Under the pieces are notes generated by a model. The model made no database searches. It was not told the DNA's origin and worked only from the letters and a program-made list of their open reading frames with translations. A program made the translations under genes and the position numbers. A stretch of 63,841 nucleotides of DNA, the filler included, from Phoronis australis (lineage: Eukaryota > Animalia > Phoronida), in the NCBI GenBank assembly GCA_002633005.1. It is 7 parts of 7 records of this genome, joined end to end, with 100 filler letters (N's around TTAATTAATTAA, not from the genome) between each part and the next. Parts side by side here need not be neighbours in the genome. Positions count along the whole stretch, not along the records: positions 55,092 to 60,163 come from NMRA01002435.1; 6 more parts are not named here. One strand, 5' to 3'. Below are positions 5,905 to 62,614 of the stretch, one piece after another. Numbering within the stretch: the stretch's first letter is position 1; every line of letters begins with the position of its first letter.

Positions 5905-6205
5905 CTCTGACCGTTACGACACGTGCGCAGAAACGTCCTCAGATGGTACAGCTGTATCCTACAATCCTTGACCTGATCCAACACTTTGACACGGCGGTAC
6001 AGCGAAGCATTGATGTCCAACAGGTTGAAGAGGGGCTCAGAGTGCATGCGCTCCAGCAGGTCGCGCGAGAAGTTGGACACATGACACCGTGTGAAGTCCC
6101 ACTTCTGGAGGATGCGTGCCGGGATGGAGCTGGTAGCATTGCCGTGGCAACACTGGCAGAAGTACTTGCCTAGGTATTCACAGTAGCGGAACCTCTTGGC
6201 AAACC
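5905..6205 (-). CDS. RUBCN: Rubicon (RUBCN) exon, Cys-rich RH/DUF4206 domain: GFAKRFRYCEYLGKYFCQCCHGNA...RTCRNGQ
   Basis: RYCEYLGKYFCQCCH, RIL.KWDF and VSNFSRDLL closely match Rubicon as recalled. AG/GT boundaries; 301 nt, phase 1 to phase 2, consistent with both neighbouring exons. Confidence 0.92.
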
Positions 6206-6412
6206 CTAAAAATGAAATCATCCTTTTTTCATCTGCAAAACATTTTGCACCAGATTCTATTTAATGAAAAAATTGAGTAAAATATCGATGCTAAAAATAG
6301 TTATAAATCATAACTGCGAATTTTGAAAACAGTAAATTTCAATTTTCTCATATGTCCGGTGAATGTTTATAATTTTTCTCAAAAAGTTTACTAGGCGATT
6401 GATAATCTCTAT

Positions 6413-8416: not shown

Positions 8417-8837
8417 TAATAAAACTTTAAATAGTGAATCCTGCTACAGGAGAGCATTACTACGAAACCACATTTTTTCTAGAAGCAGAGATGCTGTTTT
8501 TCCTTCACTACTACACCGACAGAGCACAGCACATTGCTACATCAACCCAATGCAGAGAGTTAGCACAAGGTCAACACTTCACATTTTTCACATAACTCTT
8601 GAACTAGACCAAGTATAGCCTAGAAGTATTGCATCAGCTTTCAAAAAGGTAGCCAAAAATTCTTTTCTCAAAAATCGTCAAAATAAGCAAAACATTTCAT
8701 CTGGTTTTCTTCTGGATTTTTGCCAAAACTTTGATGAAGCCACACAATTTTTGACAAAATTTTGCAGACTTTTTTGAAAACTACAGTCAGTATCTGGACT
8801 ATACTTGCACTTAATCCTCTTAATAATTAGTACTCAC

Positions 8838-8902
8838 CTGGCTCCACTTTTGTGCCACAACCGGCACACCTGTAGTTTTGCCTCATCATCACAGCAGTTC
8901 GT
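8838..8902 (-). CDS. RUBCN: Rubicon (RUBCN) exon: RTAVMMRQNYRCAGCGTKVEP(G)
   Basis: cttcAG acceptor and GTGAGT donor. QNYRCAGCG is the Rubicon motif just before RYCEYLGKYFC. Its phase-1 end joins the 5905-6205 exon in frame. Confidence 0.9.
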
Positions 8903-8949
8903 CTGAAGTTGAACAACAAGATGATAGATAAGTTATTACTTCATCACAG

Positions 8950-23245: not shown

Positions 23246-24310
23246 AACAAGAGCAACGCAGAGCGTTGAAATGCACCCACAATTGCACTGCATACGGTAT
23301 CCTTCTAGGGTTGTTTATTGGTACCATCAAGTGGTCAGTAGAGGGCATATATGTAGTACGTTGTACTTTGCAAAATGGAAAGGCATGGTCATTGTCTCCT
23401 CAATAGGCTAGGGGCAAAATGTGAGTAATCTTCATAATACAAGCACATCCTATACATAAGTTGCTTAAAGCACCACAGAAACATAGAATTAAAAACAAAT
23501 TTACCAACATACGAGATTAGCACAACATTAGAATGCCAGAAACAAATTTCTACTTGGAACTTTTCCTTCATAGTCACAAAGTAACACAAAGTATGCACCT
23601 GAAGACCTATGAAAATACAGAGGTCAATGTAAAATACTAAAATTGCCACTAGAGGCAAATACTAAAATTGCCACTAGAGGCATACCGGTAGTGAGAATCA
23701 TCCTAAAGTCGTCATCGTCCGTTGTCAACATCACATAAATACACTTGCTAAATTTAATAAAGATCCTGCAAACGGTTTGGGAGATACAGCCATGGGCGCA
23801 AAAAAACAAACTGCCACTAGGAGGCGCCACAGTAGTCAAAATCGTCGGAAAATCATAGTCAGCTGTCTTCCTTATAGTAAGCACATACACGCCAATTTTC
23901 ACAATCATCCTTTGAGCGGTTTGGTTGATAGAGGGGTGGACGCAAAAATACCGACTCGAAAACAGTAAAAATGGCCACTAGGTGGCGCAAACTATGTCGA
24001 ATCCATTGGAAAACGGCAGGATAGCGTCATCTCACTAATAGGTGCCTACATACCAAATTTCATGAAATCCGTTCAGGACTTTTGAAGATACAAAGGTAAG
24101 CGTAAAAAACTAAAATTGCCACTAGGGGGCACACCGGTAGTCGGATCCCTCCGAAAGTTCGCACATACATATGTTCCATTCATAAATGGAACATATGTAC
24201 CAAATTTCATGAACGTATGTTAAAGGGTTTTGGAGATAGAGCAGCGGACGCCGGACGGATAGGGATGACGGCATAATGCTCCACATATAAATATGTAGGC
24301 GCATAAAAAT
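23246..24310 (+). mobile_element. DINE-1/HINE-like interspersed repeat with internal GCCACTAGRKGGC-containing units
   Basis: Begins AACAAGAGCAACGC and has repeated internal modules and a CGGACG-type tract near its end. It is homologous, in inverse orientation, to 52775-53994 on a different contig. Confidence 0.7.
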
Positions 24311-24575: not shown

Positions 24576-26335
24576 CTTACAGCTACAGACGGCTGCAGAT
24601 CTCATCTCTGGGATGATTGTTCAATGGAATAGACTTTTAGCCTTGACCAAAATTGCAAAAATAGAATCTGTAGTGATATTCCCACAAATTGCCAACTCTC
24701 GCTGATGGTTTACCATTGCAATTTGCTGAAATCAAAGCTGGTGACTTTACCAGTTATATACGTCTATCTGTCACTTATCATACCCTAGTTATATACCAGT
24801 TATAAAGTCCATCTGTCAATTATCACACTTTAGTTAACACATAGTTTGGCTGGTAAGAGTTCTACGATGAGATGGTCAAAAAAGAATAGTGAAGAAGTGA
24901 CCAATGTGGGCTTTACATGTTGACATTCAATCCACCAACTAGTTTATTGACTTCTACATATTAATTACCTATCTCAGTGGAATGGAAGCACAGGGTGAGT
25001 GAAAAAACAGAGCACTTTGCAGACCATCTTCTTCACAATAGGATTAAGTCAAACTGTTTACATGGCAAGAGGCAGTGATACATACTTTTGAGAGGGTATG
25101 ATATTGAAGATAATCTGTGCTCGTGGTGGGGCCCACTCCATATTCCCTCGTAGTCTGGTGGTGTGCTGTAACAGCCAAGGTGATCATACACTAAGTCAAA
25201 ATAAAGATTATTCAACTTCTATACCTGTAATGCATCTTGATGAAAATTAAAACCTATCTTCAACGGTAGCACCTGTAAATTTGGTTCCTACAGTATGTTA
25301 AGAGCATCGCTCTGAGCCCACTAGTGCCATAAATTGCCAAATGTAAAGAACTAATAGGTGCATTGGCTTGCTTTATTTACGTCACCGTGGCAGTCACCTT
25401 TTAATACAAACAGCTGCAATTAATACCGGCACGCAATGGTGCCAATACACATAGTGTGAAACGAGATGTGCCAAGGTAATACACATAGTATGGAAAGAGC
25501 ACTGAAAACTACTTAATATATGTACACTGAACTACATAATTATGTTTAGCTTGGTAGAAGACTTTCCGTAAGACATGGTTGACTGAACACAACTTTGTAG
25601 CTGAATCGTCCAAATTTTAAAACTCTCCTCTCATAGCACACGTACATAGTGGCCATCTGTCACTTGGACCAGTTCTATACAGGAGCTGTCCGATGTTCAC
25701 TGTGAGCGATCGAAACAACATAGAAATCAACAAATTTTAAACTGCTTATTTTAATATTTCGGTACGCATCTTTCATCTAGTAAGTTGTGTTCATATGTAC
25801 TAATATACACTCTTATTTTCAACCTCACATAAGAGACTAGTAACAGATTTCACTTTCTAGCCATCGTAATCTTCAAATTTTGCATGACATGCTATGAACA
25901 TTCCCACTAAATAAAATTGGTTCTAACCCCAGTGGTTAAGGTAAACGGTGGGGTATGGAAAATTGAACTAGACCGTATTTATCCACCTTGGCTGAGTCGC
26001 GCTCGGCTCACGATCAAAGGGATGCCGCCAAGCTGCTCTAGTCATCGAGTCACGAGCGAGGATAATTGGCTTCGCTCATGCGGATATGATCAGCTGATTA
26101 CAATCTAGCTAGCAGACTGTACTTTTTATGGAGAGAGTTTTACGTAGTTTTTACTGTAATATTTGAAAAGAGGAGCGAAAACAAATATGAGTACAACTTT
26201 GAATTTTTCAAATCGGCCCAGGATAAGAGATTTTGCAACACAGCAACACTCACGATTACTTTCATTCGGCGCGCACTAATACAAAAATATAGGACCCAAG
26301 TTATTTAGATTTTGGAACACATGCATTGCAATATT

Positions 26336-26435
26336 NNNNNNNNNNNNNNNNNNNNNNNNNNNNNNNNNNNNNNNNNNNNTTAATTAATTAANNNNNNNNN
26401 NNNNNNNNNNNNNNNNNNNNNNNNNNNNNNNNNNN
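26336..26435. other. Artificial contig-joining spacer (N44-TTAATTAATTAA-N44)
   Basis: Exactly 100 nt with a six-frame stop linker; the same structure occurs six times. Confidence 0.99.
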
Positions 26436-30103: not shown

Positions 30104-30203
30104 NNNNNNNNNNNNNNNNNNNNNNNNNNNNNNNNNNNNNNNNNNNNTTAATTAATTAANNNNNNNNNNNNNNNNNNNNNNNNNNNNNNNNNNNNNNNNN
30201 NNN
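30104..30203. other. Artificial contig-joining spacer
   Basis: N44-TTAATTAATTAA-N44. Confidence 0.99.
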
Positions 30204-33516: not shown

Positions 33517-33616
33517 NNNNNNNNNNNNNNNNNNNNNNNNNNNNNNNNNNNNNNNNNNNNTTAATTAATTAANNNNNNNNNNNNNNNNNNNNNNNNNNNN
33601 NNNNNNNNNNNNNNNN
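33517..33616. other. Artificial contig-joining spacer
   Basis: N44-TTAATTAATTAA-N44. Confidence 0.99.
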
Positions 33617-37936: not shown

Positions 37937-38162
37937 ACACATGATATCAGCCATAGGTACACATGACATCAGCCATAAGTACATATCATATCAGCCATAG
38001 GTACACATGACATCAGCCATAAGTACATATCATATCAGCCATAGGTACACATGACATCAGCCATAAGTACATATCATATCAGCCATAGGTACACATGACA
38101 TCAGCCATAAGTACATATCATATCAGCCATAGCTACACATGATATCAGTCATAGGTACACAT
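37937..38162. repeat. Minisatellite, 22-bp unit with a 44-bp higher-order alternation
   Basis: CACATGACATCAGCCATAAGTA alternates with CATATCATATCAGCCATAGGTA. Confidence 0.92.
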
Positions 38163-39031
38163 ATTAATGACAGTGAGATGACAAAGAAGGGGACTGACTT
38201 TTAAGCATAGTAAACGAATGTCTTAAGAGTTCATATGATGACTCCATGAGTCAAAACTCGAAAACTGATGCTTTTCAGTAATATCAGTTATTATTAACCC
38301 TACAATCTTGCCAATTTCAGACTAAACAATAGCTAAAATTGCCCATTTTTCATTTTTCCAGAGCTTCAAGTATCAATGTGAATGTTCACAATTTTACAAA
38401 ATGTTGTCAGATGGGACATAAATTAAAGCAGCAATAATGCTGCATTCTGTCAAAGAAACAAAATTTTGAATTAAAGCACTTACCATTGTAAAATTGGTCA
38501 AAATTTGTTCCTTATTCAGGTGAGAAGTGATTTTTAGACTAGTAAAGGACTGAGAGCTCATTATTCCTTGAGACCATACTCGCCGCAACAATCCAAGTTG
38601 AAGAGCCGTGTCTCAAGCAATAACCAACTATCAGATGAGTTCTTAAGTAGCCCTGAAATTACCTAGAGGAAGAATTTGAAGCCAATTTCAAGACAGAAAG
38701 TGGTCTTAATCAAAAGTTGCTTTTTGTGATGGAAGACAGGTTTAGAACTGCTTTACATATATGGTTGTCAAAAACATTTTATGTAGTGCTCTTACACGAA
38801 AAAAGGCAAAAATATAAAAATCACTCGACAACTTTTGTGCGATATTTTACCGTACTATAATAAAAAATTCATTGGCATATCCACAACAGAAAGATATAGC
38901 TTCATTTGCCAATCAGTTATCACAGCACAAAATTCACTTAAAGTTCCATGAAAGCAGCAGCCATGCTTCTATGCACTAGAAGAGTCACCAGCTGGTGCTT
39001 GCTGTAGTTCATCGAACTTATCAACACCCAC

Positions 39032-39210
39032 CTTGTCACCACAGCTCATGCAGTAACTTGCATCTTTAAACTCATGCCAAGTGCGCCCTCCGTTGGACGA
39101 AGTGAACATCATGGCGGAGTATTTGGAGAATATACGCTCGTGAGGGATGAAAGGGTCTTCTTTATTATCATCCTCGTCTTCATCTTCCAGACCAGCAGAC
39201 AAGACAGAGT
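39032..39210 (-). CDS. Unidentified coiled-coil gene, exon (D)SVLSAGLEDEDEDDNKEDPF...DASYCMSCGDK, copy 1
   Basis: tttcAG acceptor and GTGGGT donor; 179 nt, phase 1 to 0; joins TVLCPHK. Confidence 0.8.
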
Positions 39211-39295
39211 CTGAAAGAAAGGCTTCCTTTAGCAAAACCAGACATCTGCAAACAGCCTGGCTGTTGGTTGGTGACTGTGGTGAAAAACAGAACTG

Positions 39296-39392
39296 CAAAT
39301 GACACTGGTATGAACGACACTGGTATACATGACACTGGTATAAACGCCACTGGTATGAACGACACTGGAATAAATGACACTGATATATATGA
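39296..39392. repeat. 15-bp minisatellite (ATGACACTGGTATGA), short version
   Basis: About 6 copies; a longer version lies at 40971-41196. Confidence 0.9.
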
Positions 39393-39582
39393 CTAAAGTT
39401 GCTGTTTAACTCAGGTCAACACTTTGAATTTATTTACACAAAATGATACATCACAGAAATGGACAATGTAGCTTGTTTAGATTAGATAGTATTACGTTAT
39501 TTGTTTGTCACAAGAACCCTAAAAGTTTGTGAAGCATTAAGTATTGCTGCAAATTGAAATATCCTAAAATTGCTCTTATTAC

Positions 39583-39686
39583 CTTTGCCTGTGCTGTGAG
39601 GTCGACCACTTATGACAGCCCTCTTCATGTCGTCAAATTCTTTTACTGAAGCCCTACGTGCTGCTTCTTTGGTGGAAAGTACTTTG
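39583..39686 (-). CDS. Unidentified coiled-coil gene, exon KVLSTKEAARRASVKEFDDMKRAVISGRPHSTGK, copy 1
   Basis: gtttacAG acceptor and GTAATA donor; 104 nt, phase 2 to 1. Confidence 0.75.
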
Positions 39687-40706
39687 CTGTAAACATCAGA
39701 CAACCATAATGAACTTGTAGTGTGGTTACATNGACATCAGCCATAAGTACATATCATATCAGCCATAGCTACACATGATGTCAGTCATAGGTACACATAT
39801 TAATGACTCAGTGAGATGACAAAGAAGGGGACTGACTTTTAAGCAAAGTAAACGAATGTCTTAAGAGTTCATATGATGACTCCATGAGTCAAAACTCGAA
39901 AACTGATGCTTTTCAGTAAATTAAAATATCAATTATTACTAATCCTACAATCTCGCCAATTTCAGACTAAACAATAGCTAAAATTGCCCATTTTTTCATT
40001 TTTCCAGAGCTTCAAGTATCAATGTGAATGTTCACAATTTTACAAAATGTTGTCAGATGGGACAGAAATTAAAGTAGCAATAATGCCGCATTTTGTCAAA
40101 GAAACAAAATTTTGAATTAGAGCACTTACTACTGTAAAATTGGTCACAATTTGTTCCTTATTCAGGTGAGAAGTGATTTTTGGACTAGTAAAGGACTGAG
40201 AGTTCATTATTCTTTGAGACCATACTCGCCGCAACAAACCAAGTTGAAAAGCCCTGTCTCAAGCAATAACCAACTATCAGATGAGTTCTTAAGTAGCCCT
40301 GAAATTACCTAGAAACTGACCGAGGAAGAATTTGAAGCCAATTTCAAGACAGAAAGTGGTCTTCGTCAAAAGTTGCTTTTTGTGATGGAAGACAGGTTTA
40401 GAACTGCTTTACACATGGTTGTCAAAAACATTTTATGTAGTGCTATTCATCTTACACGAAAAAAGGCAAAAAAATAAAAATCACTCAACTTTTATGTGAT
40501 ATTTTACTGTACTACAATAAAAAATTCATTGGCATATCTACAACAGAAAGATTGGATAAAAAAGAAACAGCAAAGATATAGCTTCATTTGCCAATCAGTT
40601 ATCACAGCACAAAATTCACTTAAAGTTCCATGAAAGCAGCAGCCTATGCTTCTATGCACTAGAAGTGTCACCAGCTGGTGCTTGCTGTAGTTCATCAAAC
40701 ACCCAC

Positions 40707-40885
40707 CTTGTCACCACAGCTCATGCAGTAACTTGCATCTTTAAACTCATGCCAAGTGCGCCCTCCGTTGGACGAAGTAAACATCATGGCGGAGTATTTG
40801 GAGAATATACGCTCGTGAGGGATGAAAGGGTCTTCTTTATTATCATCCTCGTCTTCATCTTCCAGACCAGCAGACAAGACAGAGT
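40707..40885 (-). CDS. Duplicate (copy 2) of exon 39032-39210
   Basis: Same peptide and splice sites; a synonymous TTC/TTT difference is visible. Confidence 0.75.
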
Positions 40886-40970
40886 CTGAAAAAGAGGCTT
40901 CCTTTAGCAAAACCAGACATCTGCAAACAGCCTGGCTGTTAGCTGGTGACTATGGTGAAAAACAGAACTG

Positions 40971-41196
40971 CAAATGACACTGGTATGAACGACACTGAAT
41001 GACACTGGTATAAATGACACTGATATGAATGACACTGGTATAAAAGACACTGGTATAAATGCCACTGGTTTGAACGACACAGGAGTAAACGACACTGGTA
41101 TGAACGACACTAGTATACATGACGCTGGTATGAACGACACTGGTATGAACGACACTGATATATGTGACACTGGTATAAATGACACTGGTATATATG
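40971..41196. repeat. 15-bp minisatellite, long version
   Basis: About 15 copies; it explains the SFIPV-repeat ORF. Confidence 0.9.
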
Positions 41197-41381
41197 ATTA
41201 AAGTTGCTGTTTAACTCAGGTCAACACTTTGAATTTATTTACACAAAATGATAAATTGCAGAAATGGACAATGTAGCTTGTTTAGATTAGATACGTTATT
41301 TGCTTGTCACAAGAACCCCAAAAGTTTGTGAAGCATTAAGTATTGCTGCAAATTGAAATATCCTAAAATTGCTCTTATTAC

Positions 41382-41485
41382 CTTTGCCTGTGCTGTGAGG
41401 TCGACCACTTATGACAGCCCTCTTCATGTCGTCAAATTCTTTTACTGAAGCCCTACGTGCTGCTTCTTTGGTGGAAAGTACTTTG
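41382..41485 (-). CDS. Duplicate (copy 2) of exon 39583-39686
   Basis: Same peptide and splice sites. Confidence 0.75.
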
Positions 41486-42942
41486 CTGTAAACATCAGAC
41501 AACCATAATGAACTTGTAGTGTGGTTACATCCTTTTATAATTAAACTATTATTATTGTTATTTCGTTCTGCGGATAGTGTGTTAAATCTCCTGAGCATTC
41601 ATTACACTGACTTTGAAATCAAGAGAGTTATATAACTACAGATCACACAGAAGTAAAATACAAAAAAGCCCCATATCAGTTGTATAACTCCGAAATACAC
41701 AAATGAGTACAAATTAAAAATTTAGTGATTTAGCAATATAGATTAAATTTTAATTTCTCCATACCAATTGTTTATAACATAAATGCTGTATTAGCTATCC
41801 GTCTACAATGTCCCTAGTATACATAATTATAGTCTGAAGTATTTAGATCTATGCCAACGTGTTGGTACACACTAATTCAAAAAGCTTTGCTAAATTTTAC
41901 TGAACATTGAAGCAATTTACAATAGTCACGTAGAGAATTGTAGTAATAACACAAAGCGCACAAAAATGCAACAACATGCAAGCCATGACACACTGCTTGT
42001 CAGTACAGAAAATGATGAGAGTGAGACTCGGGCTAAAATATCACCAATTCAGAACACAATATGGACCATAACTGAAATACTATAATCTCTGTAGCAGCTG
42101 AATCAAAGTGAATGCATAATCAGTTTTGTACCATAGCTACCACCAAACAATATTTTGAAAAATTGTAGTGACTTATAACAATGTTAGAAGCCCTTAAACA
42201 TGAAAAAGAGCAATCTTGGCGATATTTATGTCCAAAATTGCAAATTATGCAGCAGCTACAGCAGATGATGTCTTTGGAAAGCATGTACAAACTTCTTGAA
42301 CTAATAATAAAATCAGAATGTGGTGGAATGGTCAAGACCACAAGCAACTGACAGGAGACACAACAAAGCCTGCGTATACCATGTCACAAATGCTGTTGGC
42401 TTCTGTTGGATTTTCTAAAACTTGTGTGCGTTTTTGTGAAGAAAGCTATGATGGAGCAAGTGTGAATAGTTACTGTATGGGCTGTTTGCTACATACATGC
42501 TGTGGAAAAATGGCAGATTTATTCATTAGATACTAAATGTGGTAGGTTTATATTGCATTCAAATACCAAAATGTTGAGTAAATACAAGCAATTTTTGCAG
42601 TAAGTATATGTATCACACAACACATAACACCAAAGATGTCAGTGTTCATTACAGACATGAATTTAAGCTCAAAAGAATCGTTCATGATAGACCAAAGAAA
42701 GCAACAGACCAAAACAAAGAAAAAGACCAACTGCCATATTGTTCACTACATGCACATGCTTGATACAGTCATGCCAATGTTAGTGACTTGGAAATTTGGT
42801 CTTACACTTGACACAATTAACATGGGAATAATAATTAAACCTCCATTAAACAAAAGTGCAAAATGTCTAACAATATACAGATAATTGATAGTTACTGACA
42901 TTAGGTGATGTGTTAGATATTACTTGGCTAAACCTTTATTCA

Positions 42943-51436: not shown

Positions 51437-51536
51437 NNNNNNNNNNNNNNNNNNNNNNNNNNNNNNNNNNNNNNNNNNNNTTAATTAATTAANNNNNNNN
51501 NNNNNNNNNNNNNNNNNNNNNNNNNNNNNNNNNNNN
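51437..51536. other. Artificial contig-joining spacer
   Basis: N44-TTAATTAATTAA-N44. Confidence 0.99.
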
Positions 51537-51538
51537 TG

Positions 51539-52126
51539 ACTCCCAGTACGTCTCTCGGTAATCCTCCTCTGCCCACCTATACACCGCCAGTGACACCGAT
51601 GGCTCCGTCTTTACCCGAAGAGACGCCTTCACTTTCTCCGAAGTTTACCCTAGGAGAAGATGGGAGTCCCAATTCACCAGAAGATGCTAATGACAACCAA
51701 GGCGCTGTGCCAAAGGAAATCCCTCTCGACTCTGTGGACTCGCAGTCAGATTCTGAACCGAAAAGTAACATGCCATCAAGAACGGCTAGCACACTTGATT
51801 TTACAGACCTAGAAGAGCAGCGTAGTTCTCTTCTAAAAGAGCTGGAACAAATGGAAAATGATGACTCGCAAAGCAGCATTTTATCGAACTCTGTAGATTC
51901 CAGTCAGGTGGTAAGATATTCTACGCCTGTGACGAATCGGTCGGTGTCTGTGGAATTAGGGACACCTATCCTGCAAGCTGATTCTCCAGCAGGTTTGCCA
52001 TCATTTGATAAATTTGCTGTTGGGATCACTGACCACATACCTTTTGAGAATCTGCCAAATGCCACGGGTACGTACAACAAATTGCAGGACGTTCTCAAAC
52101 AATCCCGAGTTTCCAAGAGTAAATGA
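51539..52126 (+). CDS. ZCCHC8: Terminal coding exon (5'-truncated) of ZCCHC8, the NEXT-complex scaffold
   Basis: Open from the contig edge to TGA. It has a Pro/Thr-rich PPLP..TPP segment, DLEEQRSSLLKELE, and a C-terminal LPSFDKFAVGITDHIPFENLPNATGTYNKL matching the recalled ZCCHC8 motif KFATGITPFEFENMAESTGMY. Confidence 0.85.
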   Translation, partial: TPSTSLGNPPLPTYTPPVTPMAPSLPEETPSLSPKFTLGEDGSPNSPEDANDNQGAVPKEIPLDSVDSQSDSEPKSNMPSRTASTLDFTDLEEQRSSLLKELEQMENDDSQSSILSNSVDSSQVVRYSTPVTNRSVSVELGTPILQADSPAGLPSFDKFAVGITDHIPFENLPNATGTYNKLQDVLKQSRVSKSK

Positions 52127-52774: not shown

Positions 52775-53994
52775 TTTTTTGCACCCACATCACCGTCATC
52801 TCTGTTCGTCCGTCCAGCGTCCCGCGTCCGGTGCTCGATCTCCAAAACCCTGTGATGTATGTTCATGAAATTTTGCATAGATGGGACGGCATGAGCGAAC
52901 TTTTGGACGGATCTGACTACCAGTGTGCCCCCTAGTGGCAATTTTAGTTGTTTACGTTTACCTCTGTATATTCAAACGTTCTCAACGTATTTTCATACAA
53001 TTTGGCATATAGGCATCTATTAGTGAGATGACATTATCCTCCCATTTTCGGATGGATTTGACGTAGTTTGCGTCACCTAGTGGCCATTTTTGCTGTTTTC
53101 GAGTCTGTTTTCTAGCGTCCACCCCTTTATCAACCAAACCGCTCTAAGCTTGATTGTGAAAATTGGTATGTATGTTCTTACTACGAAGAGGACGGCTGAC
53201 GATGATTTTTCGACTTCTATTTCCGTGGCACCTCCTAGTGGCAGTTTTTTTGCACCCATGGCTGTATTTCCTAAACTGCTAGCAAGATCTTTACTAAATT
53301 TAGCATGTGTATTTTATGATGTTGACAACGGATGATGACAACTTTCGGACGGATCTGACTACTGATGTGCCCCCTAGTGGCAATTTTAGTTTTTTACGTT
53401 TACCTCTGTAGCTTAAAAGGTGAGATAATACTATCCATCCGTTTTCGGCTGGAATCAAGGTTCTTTGTGCCACCTAGTGGCCATTTTTACTGTTTTTTGG
53501 CGTCCACCCCTCGATCAACCAAACAATTCTGAAGATGATTTTGAAAATTGGCATATATGGTCTAGGTGTGAAGAGGACGGTTGACGATGATGAATTTGAC
53601 TACAGTGGCGCCTCCTAGAGGTAGTCTTGTTTTGCGCCCATAGCTGCATCTTCTAAACCCACTGCAGGTTATTAAATTTAGTAATTGTATTAAAATGAAG
53701 CTAACACCAGACGTTGACACCTTTCAGGTGGATCCAACGAATGCTGTGCACCATAGTGGCCATTTCATTTTTTCCATTTTCCTTCCTTTCTCTGAAGTTC
53801 CCCAACAGATTTTTATGAAATTTGGCAAATAGCTCTCTATTAAAGAAGCAATGCCGATGGCATGTTCCCGTTTTCATATAAATTGGACGTTTTTGCTCCA
53901 TCTAGTGGCCATTTTTATGAAACAAACAACCCTAGAAGCACACCGTTTGTGGTGCATTCGTGGCCACATTTCAGTGCTTCGCGTTGCTCTTGTT
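52775..53994 (-). mobile_element. Second copy of the DINE-1/HINE-like repeat seen at 23246-24310
   Basis: Ends in GCGTTGCTCTTGTT (reverse complement of AACAAGAGCAACGC). Contains repeated GCCCCCTAGTGGC/CACCTAGTGGCC units and a CGTCCGTCC tract. Confidence 0.7.
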
Positions 53995-54991: not shown

Positions 54992-55091
54992 NNNNNNNNN
55001 NNNNNNNNNNNNNNNNNNNNNNNNNNNNNNNNNNNTTAATTAATTAANNNNNNNNNNNNNNNNNNNNNNNNNNNNNNNNNNNNNNNNNNNN
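54992..55091. other. Artificial contig-joining spacer
   Basis: N44-TTAATTAATTAA-N44. Confidence 0.99.
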
Positions 55092-55398
55092 ATTTACGAA
55101 TGCGAGCTGGATTTTGAAAATGCGGCCTGAGATTTTGGCTAGGTCGCAAAATGCGACCTGGCGATTTCAATAGCGTCGAGCCCTGTAAGGTAACGATTTA
55201 TAACACAAAATTGTCTTAGAAATCTGAAATCGGGTAATTTACCGAAATGGGTTTTAAACGGAGGCAAATATGGAGCACCGTGTCCTACTTTTTGATTGTC
55301 CTCCCTAATTAAATTTTAGGTTCTTCGAAGGTTTGCTAGTTGTGTTCTGATAAAGATCAGTCAGAACATAAATGTGGCTTTCGGTGACAAGATATAGT

Positions 55399-55550
55399 TG
55401 TTGTAGATGTGCTTCCGGTGAATTATATGAGCCTCTGTTAGCTACTCGCTCACGGGCAATTGCCTATTAACTGAATGGTTAGCACGCTTGCCGGTTTTAT
55501 GGGGGTTGCGGGTTCGATCCCCAAGTCGGGTGATCTCGGCTATTACTACA
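55399..55550 (+). repeat. 5' LTR of the TRIM
   Basis: TGTTGTAG...TATTACTACA; A-box variant TAACTGAATGG at 55468-55478 and B box GGTTCGATCCC at 55511-55521. Confidence 0.95.
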
Positions 55551-55552
55551 AA

Positions 55553-55566
55553 TGGCGTAGTTGGCA
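55553..55566 (+). promoter_or_regulatory. Primer-binding site complementary to the 3' end of tRNA-Ser
   Basis: TGGCGTAGTTGGCA versus TGGCGTAGTCGGCA expected from the recalled eukaryotic tRNA-Ser(AGA/TGA) 3' end ...TGCCGACTACGCCA. The single difference would be a G:U pair. Confidence 0.88.
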
Positions 55567-55770
55567 AACGGATGATCTACCGATGAAGCACTGCCAACTA
55601 GTACCCACGGACCTCGGGACAGCGTGCGTGGAAGGATCCAGGAGTCAAGGACCTGTATGAGAGACGACCTTGTGTTCACTTGTGTTGTGGTGGTAAAGGT
55701 ACCAAGGGACGTTGATGACCTGTATGAAAGACATCCTGGTGTTCACCTTCCTGTCGCTTGCCCATTCCGT

Positions 55771-55784
55771 AGGAAAGGGGGGAA
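55771..55784 (+). promoter_or_regulatory. Polypurine tract (plus-strand primer)
   Basis: AGGAAAGGGGGGAA lies directly before the TG of the 3' LTR. Confidence 0.92.
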
Positions 55785-55936
55785 TGTTGTAGATGTGCTT
55801 CCGGTGAATTATATGAGCCTCTGTTAGATACTCGCTCACGGGCAATTGCCTATTAGCTGAATGGTTAGCACGCTTGCCGGTTTTATGGGGGTTGCGGGTT
55901 CGATCCCCGAGTCAGGTGATCTCGGCTATTACTACA
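55785..55936 (+). repeat. 3' LTR of the TRIM
   Basis: 152 bp, 148/152 identical to the 5' LTR. Confidence 0.95.
55854..55907 (+). promoter_or_regulatory. Type-2 RNA polymerase III internal promoter (tRNA-like) inside the LTR
   Basis: A box TAGCTGAATGG (55854-55864) fits TRGCNNARYGG. B box GGTTCGATCCC (55897-55907) fits GGTTCGANNCC. They are 32 nt apart, and the T-arm CGGG-TTCGATC-CCCG is intact. Confidence 0.85.
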
Positions 55937-56957
55937 TAGTAACAGAACAATTCCGTAAAGGCAAGTCCTTATTTCAGCAAAAAATTTACCACAATCCGCA
56001 GTATTTTCAATTAAATATAAATAAATGCAAAATGTGCCAAAACGTCCGATAATTAGGTCGCCTAACTGTAGCCAGTCGAGTCGAGAGGCTACGTGTTGCC
56101 TGCAATTTCTATATTTAAAACTTGTACATGTTTGATTTTTAGTTACAGATGAAACAAATGAGAAAGTAAAGAAGACCAAGTATCACCTCACGAATTGCAG
56201 CTTCCAGATTTTGAGAAACAACTTCATTNTTTTGAGAGTTTCTTTCGCTTTTTGTTCGGTTAAACCGATGCCGGTAAAAAGCACGACTCTTTCGTCAGCC
56301 ATCTTCACAGGGACTCAAAAAGGTGAAGCTAGGAAATGTACAGAAATTTGAAAATGAAAACCAGCAACAACTTTGAAATGCAGAGTAGATAAAATTTTAC
56401 TATTTTATACTTCCAATACTTATTCACTATATTTAGAATCATTTTCACAAATTGTACAAACAACAAAAATTCAATGTATGCCACGCCACATTACTATTTT
56501 GTGAAAGCCTATGAGTTGTTTTTAGAGGTCGCTGTAGTCGCTGGCACGTGTGAGTAATCTCAAACAATAACAAGTTAAATGTTTACAATTGTGTTAACAG
56601 TAGGTTTTGTGCCGTGGCACCTGTGAAGCTTAATCTCAAGGTGTCCAAATGTTTGTTTGAACCAGATCCCACAGCCTAATTAAGTTCAATCCTATTACTT
56701 GCGCAACTTACTTGTTTTCTCACGGCCAAGGTCACAACTTTTTTGCTGATTGGTGGCTGGTTTTTTGGCCGGGGGCCTGGCAATGAGATACTATGATTAC
56801 TGTAGACATGGCCTAGGCAGCATATTTAGAACAAAAATAAAGTGACAGAATCGCGGTTTTGGCAGTTTATGTATACCCAATAGCAGTATTGAAAAAAATG
56901 GGGGGCTAATAGCCCCCAACACCCCCTGACCCTGTGTCGCACCATCCAGAGACCATG

Positions 56958-60163: not shown

Positions 60164-60263
60164 NNNNNNNNNNNNNNNNNNNNNNNNNNNNNNNNNNNNN
60201 NNNNNNNTTAATTAATTAANNNNNNNNNNNNNNNNNNNNNNNNNNNNNNNNNNNNNNNNNNNN
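60164..60263. other. Artificial contig-joining spacer
   Basis: N44-TTAATTAATTAA-N44. Confidence 0.99.
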
Positions 60264-60265
60264 TG

Positions 60266-60556
60266 AATTGGAGCGTGCGCAGTATAAAAATGGTGAGTTC
60301 ACGATTTTGGGAACTGAAATAGGGACTGCTCGAAGAAAAGGTTTCATAACGGGAGTATTTGTTCGAGTTGGAAGGAATTAATCACATCGACAACCTCCTA
60401 AGGTGTTCCTCTATGCGCAAAAGGTATTTATAACAATGTGACTTTTATGGTTTAGTCGGTGCGAGGCATAATTTGCCGAAAAGCTTCCGGCATACAGAGC
60501 GCCTATAGCCTCTACATCGCCTCTGCTTCGGGCCAACAGAGGCGATGGTCATTGCC
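60266..60556 (-). mobile_element. Right arm of a foldback/MITE element truncated by the contig edge
   Basis: Near-identical reverse complement of 61461-61750; ends ...GGTCATTGCC|TAA. Confidence 0.8.
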
Positions 60557-60817
60557 TAATCCCAGCTTAGCCTTTACTGGCGGACAATCGAGCATTGCAC
60601 AAAAGTGTCACATACTCGTCATACTCCTCTACTCTAGGCTCAGTCTTACTTGTGAATGAATGAATTTATGCAAGGGAATGAATTTATGCAAGGGAATAAG
60701 TGAGAACCATTTCGGAATACTCGACTTAATTCGAGTATGAATTTTAAGGAAGAGAGAGAGAAAGGTTATTAAATTGTTATGATTGACCTCACAACCACAG
60801 GTTACATTAGATGATTA

Positions 60818-61380
60818 GACAGTGACTACCGTTTCTAGCTGGCAGTAGAGAGGGTGAAGCTCCTATAATAAGAGTTTCATACGCCAGAAGCTTTTCATCA
60901 AATTATGCCTCGCACTGATTAAAACAATCAAAGTTAGAATTACCATTTGCACATGGAAGGACACCTTTGGAAGCCATCGATGTCTTTACTTCCTTCCAAC
61001 TCAAACAAATACTCCTGTTATCAAACTTTTTCTTCGAGCAGTCCTTGGTTCAGTTCCCAAAATGGGTAACTGGTAATTTTTAACAGTGCACGCGCTACTA
61101 TTGGGCGTAGTAAAAATTATAGCGTGCACAGTGTAAAAATGGCCATTTACCGATTATAGGCTCTGAATGAAGCTGAGCTTGAAGAAAAAGTTTGATAACA
61201 TGAGTATTTGTTCAAGTTGGAAGGAATTAAAAACATCAAAAGCCTCCTAAGGTGTCCCTCTATTCGCAAAAGGTACTTATAACTAATGTTTTAGTCAGTG
61301 TGAGGCATAATTCGCCAAAAAGCTTCAAACGTATGAAGAGCTTCACTGTCTACTGCCAGCTAGAGATGGTAGTTGCTGTC
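60818..61380. mobile_element. Foldback MITE (about 560 bp, nearly fully palindromic), diverged subfamily
   Basis: TTA|GACAGTGACTACCGTTTCTAGCTGGCAGTAGA...TCTACTGCCAGCTAGAGATGGTAGTTGCTGTC|TAA. The arms converge on GTGCACGC...GCGTGCAC at about 61087-61128. Confidence 0.8.
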
Positions 61381-61460
61381 TAAGGTTACATGGCATTAGT
61401 CCAAAGGTGCTCTGTATAGTCTACTAGTCCTTTGGCATTGCCATTGTTAGCATTTGTTAA

Positions 61461-62384
61461 GCAATGACCATCGCCTCTGTTGGCCCGAAGCAGAGGCGAT
61501 GCAGAGGCTATAGGCGCTCTGTACGCCGGAAGCTTTTCGGCAAATTATGCCTCGCACCGACTAAACCATCAAAGTCACGTTGTTATAAATACCTTTTGCG
61601 CATAGAGGAACACCTTAGGAGGTTGTCGATATGTTTAAGTCGTTCCAACTCGAACAAATACTCCCTTTATCAAACTTTTTCTTCGATCAGTCCCTATTTC
61701 AGTTCCCAAAATCGTGAAATCAAAATTTTTGTACTGTGCACGCTCCAATTTTTACCGCGCTCGCTAGGTGATGTGACTTCATCGCCTCAATTTTTAAATA
61801 GGCCAAAGGTGAGCCATTGCGGTCTTGTCAGTCAAATGTTCGTTTCCAAAATGCCACCACTTATACTTGTCTTTAATTGGCGTTACTTGAAACTGATTGT
61901 ATTTCAATGAATTATTGTTTGTATTTGATAAAAATAAATGCTGTTGATATGACATTTAATAGTCTTTGTGCACATATTTGACATTTTAATGTTTACCAAT
62001 CGGCAAATGCACGGCTGGTTCGCGGCAGCACGTACGCAAAGGGCGGGAACTTCAGCTTTCAAAGTTCGCCGGTAGGATCGCAACTTCTGACCTTCGGCCT
62101 GTTAAAAAAAAATGAAAATTTTGATTTCACGATTTTGGGAACTGAGATAGGGACTGATCAAAGAAAAAGTTTGATAACGGGAGTATTTGTTCGAGTTGGA
62201 AGGACTTAAACACATCGACAACCTCCTAAGGTGTTCCTCTATGCGCGAAAGGTATTCATAACAACGTGACTTTGATGGTTTAGTCGGTCCGAGGCATAAT
62301 TCGCCAAAAAGCTTCCGGCATACAGAGCGCCTACAGCCTCTGCATCGCCTCTGCTTCGGGCCAACAGAGGCGATGGTCATTGCC
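61461..62384. mobile_element. Foldback element with about 270-bp inverted arms and a unique spacer of about 385 bp
   Basis: Arms 61461-61729 and 62115-62384 are near-identical inverted repeats. Each carries an 11-bp-stem hairpin CATCGCCTCTG...CAGAGGCGATG near the terminus. Flanks are TA/TAA. Confidence 0.82.
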
Positions 62385-62614
62385 TAAGCATTTGTATGTT
62401 GATTGTATTGTTTCCTACTCGTCTCGTCTTGTCTCCTTCCATGGGATGATGTTGACTACTAGTGGTGGGAACTCCAGCTACTGATTGAAGTTTGAAATCT
62501 TGGAAGTTCTGTTCAGTGATGTCATGCTTTTGTGTATTTATTCCCCGAGTTTTATGTTTAAACTCTGATAGAACGAGTTTCAATGTCATGAGCTATTTTT
62601 TCATTCTCTTTCAG

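Follow-up and report, generated by a model that had tools for sequence, protein, structure and literature searches.

Results

Genes and repeats of the window

The stretch of DNA analysed here, hereafter the window (63.8 kb; Phoronis australis), contains part of a gene, a long reading frame, many repeats and, at 55399-55936, the 538-bp element with which this study is concerned. The gene is Rubicon (RUBCN), of which three exons lie on the minus strand (5907-6206, 8836-8919 and 25085-25171). One of these exons, over 100 aa, shares 71% identity with the amphioxus protein and 62-67% with the proteins of brachiopods, molluscs, annelids, sea urchins and vertebrates, and in a tree of 26 rows, a comparison that lacks nemerteans, it joins no supported group. 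The reading frame (51485-52126, plus strand) is long and rich in S and P; its end has what we take to be a resemblance to the C-terminus of ZCCHC8, an identity for which Pfam, a homologue search and the ESM Atlas gave no support. Repeats include a local duplication of about 1.3-1.6 kb with 91-92% identity (38093-41530), many minisatellites, and inverted-repeat elements at 23246-24257, 52818-53994 and 60266-62387. The window is interrupted by six gaps of 100 bases (26336-26435, 30104-30203, 33517-33616, 51437-51536, 54992-55091 and 60164-60263), each composed of 44 N, 12 letters and 44 N, one of them with a TTAA-repeat linker, which are an assembly artefact.

A short element with two LTRs and no coding capacity

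Read on the plus strand, the element consists of a 152-nt 5' LTR (55399-55550), a 234-nt interior (55551-55784) and a 152-nt 3' LTR (55785-55936), and it is framed by the target-site duplication (TSD) TAGT (55395-55398 and 55937-55940). Both LTRs have TG...CA ends, which form an imperfect terminal inverted repeat (8 of the first 10 nt); they differ from each other at four LTR positions (44, 72, 125 and 130), and contigs arriving from unrelated flanks reach the first base of the 5' LTR. The interior starts with AA (55551-55552), followed by a primer-binding site (PBS) of 14 nt (55553-55566), carries a 30-nt direct repeat (55650-55679 and 55717-55746, 87%), and ends in a polypurine tract (PPT) of 14 purines (55771-55784) that abuts the 3' LTR. 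It is non-coding: stop-free stretches reach at most 88 aa when all six frames are read, and there is neither gag nor pol. The initial annotation had proposed this anatomy from TSD to TSD, with an interior of 234 bp devoid of gag and pol, and was borne out to the exact coordinate. We found no second copy of the element within the 63.8-kb window.

The PBS is complementary to the 3' end of tRNA-Ser (AGA/TGA) over its 14 nt, with 13 Watson-Crick pairs and one G:U, and the letter that most family members carry at 55562 makes the match complete. The tRNA-Ser primer suggested at the outset is thus confirmed against the printed tRNA table of PMC10359600, in which the 3' ends of tRNA-Ser-AGA-1-1 and TGA-2-1 are complementary to the PBS; a matching tRNA-Ser 3' end is also given in PMC3299991.

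The element is inserted in a host interspersed repeat, with approximate limits at 55186 and 56087 as drawn from read depth, loose ends at 55185-55186 and joints. The locus adjoins the end of another very high-copy repeat (55100-55185), which 76 and 60 contigs leave at 55185. Neither repeat has further copies in the window.

A tRNA-type promoter remnant in each LTR

Each LTR contains a tRNA-like segment with an A box (55468-55478 and 55854-55864) and a B box (55511-55521 and 55897-55907). The initial annotation had credited both LTRs with an A box, a perfect B box and an intact T-arm. The B box stands as claimed, reading GGTTCGATCC(C) at 55511 and 55897. The A box fits the motif TRGCY..YGG of Helenus elements (see Discussion) exactly in the 3' LTR only; the 5' LTR is off by one letter (55470), where the 3'-LTR letter is found in most mapped reads and contigs. 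The T-arm is not intact, with canonical pairs at 4 of 5 positions of the T-stem in the 3' LTR and at 3 of 5 in the 5' LTR. The composite of A and B boxes has a single occurrence in the window, that of the 3' LTR, whereas 200 mononucleotide shuffles gave 0.01 per window. The core of the B box is unchanged among the family variants listed, so that boxes not conserved across copies, which would have spoken against the element, are not what these variants show. Some copies read CTGG or CTAG, TTCGATT and CCAG at the T-arm (55508-55524), a paired T-A replacing G-C; other subfamilies may therefore have a better preserved T-stem.

Proper tRNA features are otherwise degraded. The acceptor stem is broken, RNAfold favours a different stem over the T-arm, and the segment does not make up a cloverleaf (acceptor, D, anticodon and T stems). 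A search for tRNAs on the LTR segment had been recommended at the outset, and it came out negative: ARAGORN predicted no tRNA in the window and Rfam returned no match at E<=1 in 55000-56300, 5S included. These negatives, together with the broken stems, identify the segment as a remnant of a tRNA-type promoter and not as a tRNA. A by-eye comparison nevertheless aligns 13 of the 17 letters at 55516-55532 with the 3' part of tRNA-Lys-CTT (Fig. S2 of PMC10886601). Folding energies are ordinary for the two LTRs (z-scores -1.0 and +1.1) and for the module described below and the predicted RNA (-0.6 and +0.3), so that a stable RNA structure finds no support. No run of four or more T follows the B box; the sole T4 stands between the boxes (55495-55498, and 55881-55884 in the 3' LTR), where it might act as a leaky Pol III stop.

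A dispersed family with its own insertion sites

Of nine public contig and RNA runs listed, we mapped eight to positions 55100-56220 (1,121 bp); X1 and X2 derive from one sample, X6 from a second organism (B), and X7-X9 are RNA, of which 18-19% of each run was read. At 80% likeness, 2,278 (X1) and 1,606 (X2) contigs were placed on this stretch, flanking repeats included. Thirty of them (X1) and 23 (X2) enter the first base of the LTR, 55399, from unrelated sequence, and since their loose ends agree only to 0.39-0.40, the LTR must be preceded by different flanks. Over the element, the summed depth of contigs exceeds that of unique flank (36.6) by a factor of hundreds to thousands, which is not a copy number.

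The same data contain the site without the element. At 55398, 20 (X1) and 16 (X2) contigs pass directly into the right flank, and a joint from 55393 to 55936, present in contigs of X1, X2 and X6, skips 542 nt, i.e., the 538 nt of the element and the 4 nt of one TSD. RNA reads cross this joint as well (37 in X7, 24 in X8 and 12 in X9). Because both flanks are high-depth repeat, the empty site represents paralogous copies of the host repeat and not necessarily an empty allele. Two further sites carry other duplications. In X9, loose ends at the LTR show a left flank ending in GCCC (66 reads) and a right flank starting with GCCC (74 reads); in X7 and X8, the left flank ends in GAAG (62 and 59 reads) and GAAG follows the LTR end (35 and 30 reads). 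They are two probable solo LTRs with 4-bp TSDs of their own, the left and right ends having been paired on their consensus strings. X9 also contains an expressed LTR variant with a 3-nt insertion at the start of a hairpin of the module described below (55438/55824; 59 and 41 reads), which is probably the solo LTR with the GCCC duplication.

Diverged contigs hold the tRNA-like part inside the LTR (e.g., record 1 of X3, covering 55402-55545 with 22 other letters, and record 26 of X6), and it is thus not a SINE inserted locally. Two observations that would have spoken against a mobile family, a lack of other copies with their own TSDs and a tRNA-like part present at this locus only, are accordingly contradicted by the GCCC, GAAG and empty TAGT sites and by the diverged copies and the second organism, respectively. 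The empty site and the several TSDs show real retrotransposition.

The two LTRs differ by 4 of 152 positions (2.6%, 95% interval 0.7-6.6%). Private changes of the studied copy lie at 55470 in the 5' LTR and at 55828 and 55914 in the 3' LTR, and both LTRs share departures from the family majority at 55451/55837 and 55507/55893. Few RNA reads are 99% alike to this copy (2/807, 1/696 and 2/720), and most are less than 95% alike. Set against the LTR divergence, this makes the studied copy a younger member of an older family: the fairly recent insertion assumed in the initial annotation holds for the copy and not for the family.

Gypsy elements with the same primer-binding site

An autonomous Gypsy element with a tRNA-Ser PBS had been proposed as partner, and such elements do exist in other hosts. 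A scan of metagenomes, whose loci belong to hosts other than the studied one, for TACA followed by the PBS returned 103 loci; in 29 of them the complementarity to the tRNA reaches 17 nt. Four of the five long pol ORFs scanned have the order protease-RT-RNaseH-integrase; in the fifth, which may be nested or rearranged, the integrase precedes RT. When one pol ORF was compared with the PDB, its closest match was Ty3 Gag-Pol (E 1.6e-114). Both LTRs are present in 5 of the 23 loci examined, and of these five two-LTR elements three are flanked by exact 4-bp TSDs, one by TSDs that agree at 3 of 4 letters, while one is unclear.

Like the studied element, the loci L015, L017, L027, L035, L047, L049, L081 and L083 have this PBS directly after a TACA LTR end, and the two-LTR loci have 4-bp TSDs and G-rich PPTs. 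Unlike it, the Gypsy loci encode pol or pol remnants, lack a B box and come from other hosts. A search of the 400 nt upstream of the PBS found no B box in the metagenome loci, and hence no TRIM relative, and the sequence that they have in common with the studied element is no longer than the PBS. They indicate the likely class of the helper and are not the helper itself. A scan of viral contigs for the LTR end plus PBS gave 13 loci, chance matches only. L015, L047 and L049 (and L025, L036 and L073) form a Gypsy-type family with short LTRs of about 170 nt, the same tRNA-Ser PBS and 4-bp TSDs; three of its copies measure only about 3.4-3.6 kb.

Discussion

A new family of a known kind

The name Helenus, suggested in the initial annotation, turns out to be the right one. 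Helenus (TRIMp3; Kojima 2024, Biology 13:119, PMC10886601) comprises TRIMs whose LTRs contain tRNA-derived sequence with conserved TRGCY..YGG and GGTTC boxes, which is exactly the kind of element described here. In animals these elements have 4-bp TSDs and Gypsy-type PBSs, and their use of Pol III is put forward in that paper without experimental validation. The studied element fits Helenus on every feature that its sequence allows to be examined. First, it is shorter than 1000 bp (538 bp, within the range of 311-1263 bp), non-coding and without a functional tRNA. Second, it has two LTRs with tRNA-like A and B boxes. Third, its PBS matches a tRNA 3' end and is of a type seen in Gypsy elements of other hosts, and a PPT and a 4-bp TSD are in place. 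Fourth, it is dispersed and has left probable solo LTRs. Its sizes resemble those of Ser-primed Helenus from bivalves, such as Helenus-2_MyGa (144/226/514). The T4 that stands only between the boxes is common to this element and Helenus-6_SaGl, whereas a run of at least four T after the B box, absent here, is present by eye in 8 of the first 14 LTRs of part 6 of the supplement.

Its family is distinct from those published. None of the families listed in PMC10886601 combines an LTR of 152 with an interior of 234; the PBS has no match in the supplement, where the listed Ser-primed families use other tRNA-Ser ends. Four element-specific motifs have no match in the whole supplement, and comparison by eye with its parts 1, 5, 6 and 7 revealed no relative, parts 2-4, 8 and 9 being covered by motif only. 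As all testable features agree and no family among those compared matches in sizes, motifs or by eye, we assign the element to a new Helenus family; the kind itself was described in 2024 and is not new. The literature from 2024 on yielded no Helenus survey later than that paper. With it, this recent class, whose promoter use is a prediction, gains a well-documented family and a previously unlisted primer type.

Other systems share some of these traits. Cassandra, the one validated Pol III TRIM, has RNA that starts and stops within the 5S parts of its LTRs, giving an 18-nt terminal repeat (PMC10886601; start and stop also in PMC7215508). Cassandra and Ajax, the 5S-bearing TRIMp3, resemble our element in that a TRIM has a Pol III promoter in both LTRs (a predicted one here), but theirs is a 5S promoter and ours consists of boxes of the tRNA type, in which Rfam detects no 5S sequence; moreover, the TSD of Ajax is 5 bp long and that of the studied element 4 bp. 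The tRNA-derived SINEs (SINE2) are equally short and non-coding and have internal promoter boxes of tRNA origin, but they end in a LINE-type tail where this element has LTRs, a PBS, a PPT and a fixed 4-bp TSD.

Transcription and mobilisation

The anatomy, the dispersal, the insertion into an existing repeat with 4 bp duplicated, the PBS for tRNA-Ser and the lack of coding capacity were observed directly. We regard the element as a non-coding, multi-copy TRIM of the Helenus kind. Pol III probably transcribes it from the tRNA-derived boxes in its 5' LTR, and a tRNA-Ser-primed Ty3/Gypsy element probably copies and integrates it in trans. In the 5' LTR, initiation by Pol III would fall a short way before the A box, within or directly behind a palindrome found there. 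The polymerase would pass the T4 of this LTR and terminate at its counterpart in the 3' LTR or in flanking sequence; reading through the first T4 and stopping later would produce the terminal redundancy that strand transfer needs. Host tRNA-Ser would then prime minus-strand DNA and the PPT plus-strand DNA, the Gypsy integrase would join the TG...CA ends, and recombination between LTRs would leave solo LTRs. Most copies are older ones that are passively transcribed as parts of host RNAs.

The RNA data fit this last point. In the 18-19% of each run (X7-X9) that was read, 66-70% of the mapped RNA reads continue into unrelated sequence, RNA depth is higher on the LTRs than on the interior, and no pile-up of element RNA starts or ends appears among the entries listed for these runs, whose library selection is unspecified. 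This signal represents read-through of copies embedded in other transcripts. RNA-seq libraries such as these would probably miss a Pol III RNA that is short and rare, for which reason the RNA weighs little either way. The internal T4 is a cost and not a bar, since T4 stops human Pol III efficiently in vitro and canonical stops are nevertheless read through in cells (PMC3141230). The mutated 5' A box of the studied copy counts against Pol III transcription, as does the failure of ARAGORN and Rfam to recognise the segment.

The main alternative, which we consider unlikely without dismissing it, is an ordinary Pol II-driven TRIM whose ancestor took the head of a tRNA-derived SINE into its LTR, so that the boxes are passengers and copying starts from Pol II or read-through RNA. 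Such an element would account for RNA reads that are read-through, for a T4 within the would-be Pol III unit and for the TATA-like TTATAT at 55423-55428, and the Helenus paper contains no functional promoter test (PMC10886601). Yet this TATA-like motif varies in the family at 55424, the two boxes have outlasted the decayed stems as the best-preserved parts of the tRNA, the family variants listed avoid the B-box core, and the same boxes are retained across Helenus (PMC10886601), all of which argues against this alternative. It is very improbable that the LTR encodes a working tRNA, or a tRNA-like RNA kept for a host function: the 13 of 17 letters matching by eye the 3' part of tRNA-Lys-CTT (PMC10886601) speak for it, against negative ARAGORN and Rfam searches, broken acceptor and T stems and the LTR folding z-scores of -1.0 and +1.1. 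We reject a local accident, in which a SINE or tRNA pseudogene was tandemly duplicated at one locus and came to imitate LTRs, as the 63.8-kb window indeed has no second copy but contigs with dozens of independent flanks, the exact empty site, the other TSDs in RNA runs, the copies found in organism B and the correct positions of PBS and PPT refute it.

A hairpin-palindrome module upstream of the A box

The A box is immediately preceded by a module made of a 6-bp hairpin (55436-55452; 6-nt arms and a 5-nt loop), a perfect 10-nt palindrome (55455-55464, and 55841-55850 in the 3' LTR) and 3 nt. The hairpin has 5 of 6 pairs in the studied copy; the letter that prevails in the family at 55451 (99% of depth) supplies the sixth. 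Of 123,964 window positions, 160 (0.13%) show this layout, and when LTR positions 1-69 were shuffled 20,000 times it arose in 8 cases; both frequencies refer to a definition set after the pattern had been seen. The 3' LTR of the studied copy fails this definition, through private and shared changes.

In the supplement of PMC10886601, the same layout is found by eye 2-3 nt before the A box of LTR-11_DR and its fish relatives and of LTR2_Lch, and again in Helenus-1_CGi, 2_CVi, 1_CVi, 3_SaGl, 1_PiNo, 5_PeMa and 1_LiLo. The letters differ and yet pair (GGGTTAACCC and GGGAATATTCCC, compared by eye with GGCAATTGCC in the studied element). Other animal families, e.g., Helenus-2_CGi, 1_TeGr and those of Lingula, lack the module and keep a tRNA-like 5' strand, again as judged by eye. 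The words 'hairpin' and 'palindrom' are absent from the main text of PMC10886601, which argues for multiple origins of Helenus. A scan of viral contigs for the upstream module gave 9 loci, chance matches only.

The recurrence of the module hints at one shared Helenus lineage, a lead that comes from an unaligned comparison by eye. Tentatively, much of animal Helenus (in ostariophysan fish, the coelacanth, several bivalve orders, nemerteans and the studied host) could be a single lineage, ancient or horizontally spread, marked by the module with its palindrome of 10-12 nt, and the module could serve as a signal at the 3' end of the RNA alone. With a Pol III start inside or behind the module, only the copy in the 3' LTR would be transcribed whole. 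There it could act as a terminator, or as a signal to the Gypsy helper for packaging or strand transfer. The first of these ideas is weakened by the TATT, and not a T run, that follows the palindrome in the studied family; furthermore, according to PMC4982682, which lends no support to hairpin-dependent termination, oligo(T) pausing suffices for Pol III to terminate.

If a 3'-end signal is indeed at work, it would explain how identical LTRs start RNA at one end of the element and stop it at the other, and a single module-marked lineage would contradict the multiple-origin view of PMC10886601. The module thus offers a testable handle on whether animal Helenus arose once or several times, and another on how a Pol III unit present in both LTRs sets the ends of its RNA. 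Without it, the finding would be routine repeat annotation.

A second paired structure lies in the interior, where most of the PBS (55558-55566) belongs to a perfect 9-nt inverted repeat whose other arm stands 25 nt downstream (55592-55600). Pairing of the two arms could mask the PBS in RNA; the majority letter at 55562 would break one of the pairs.
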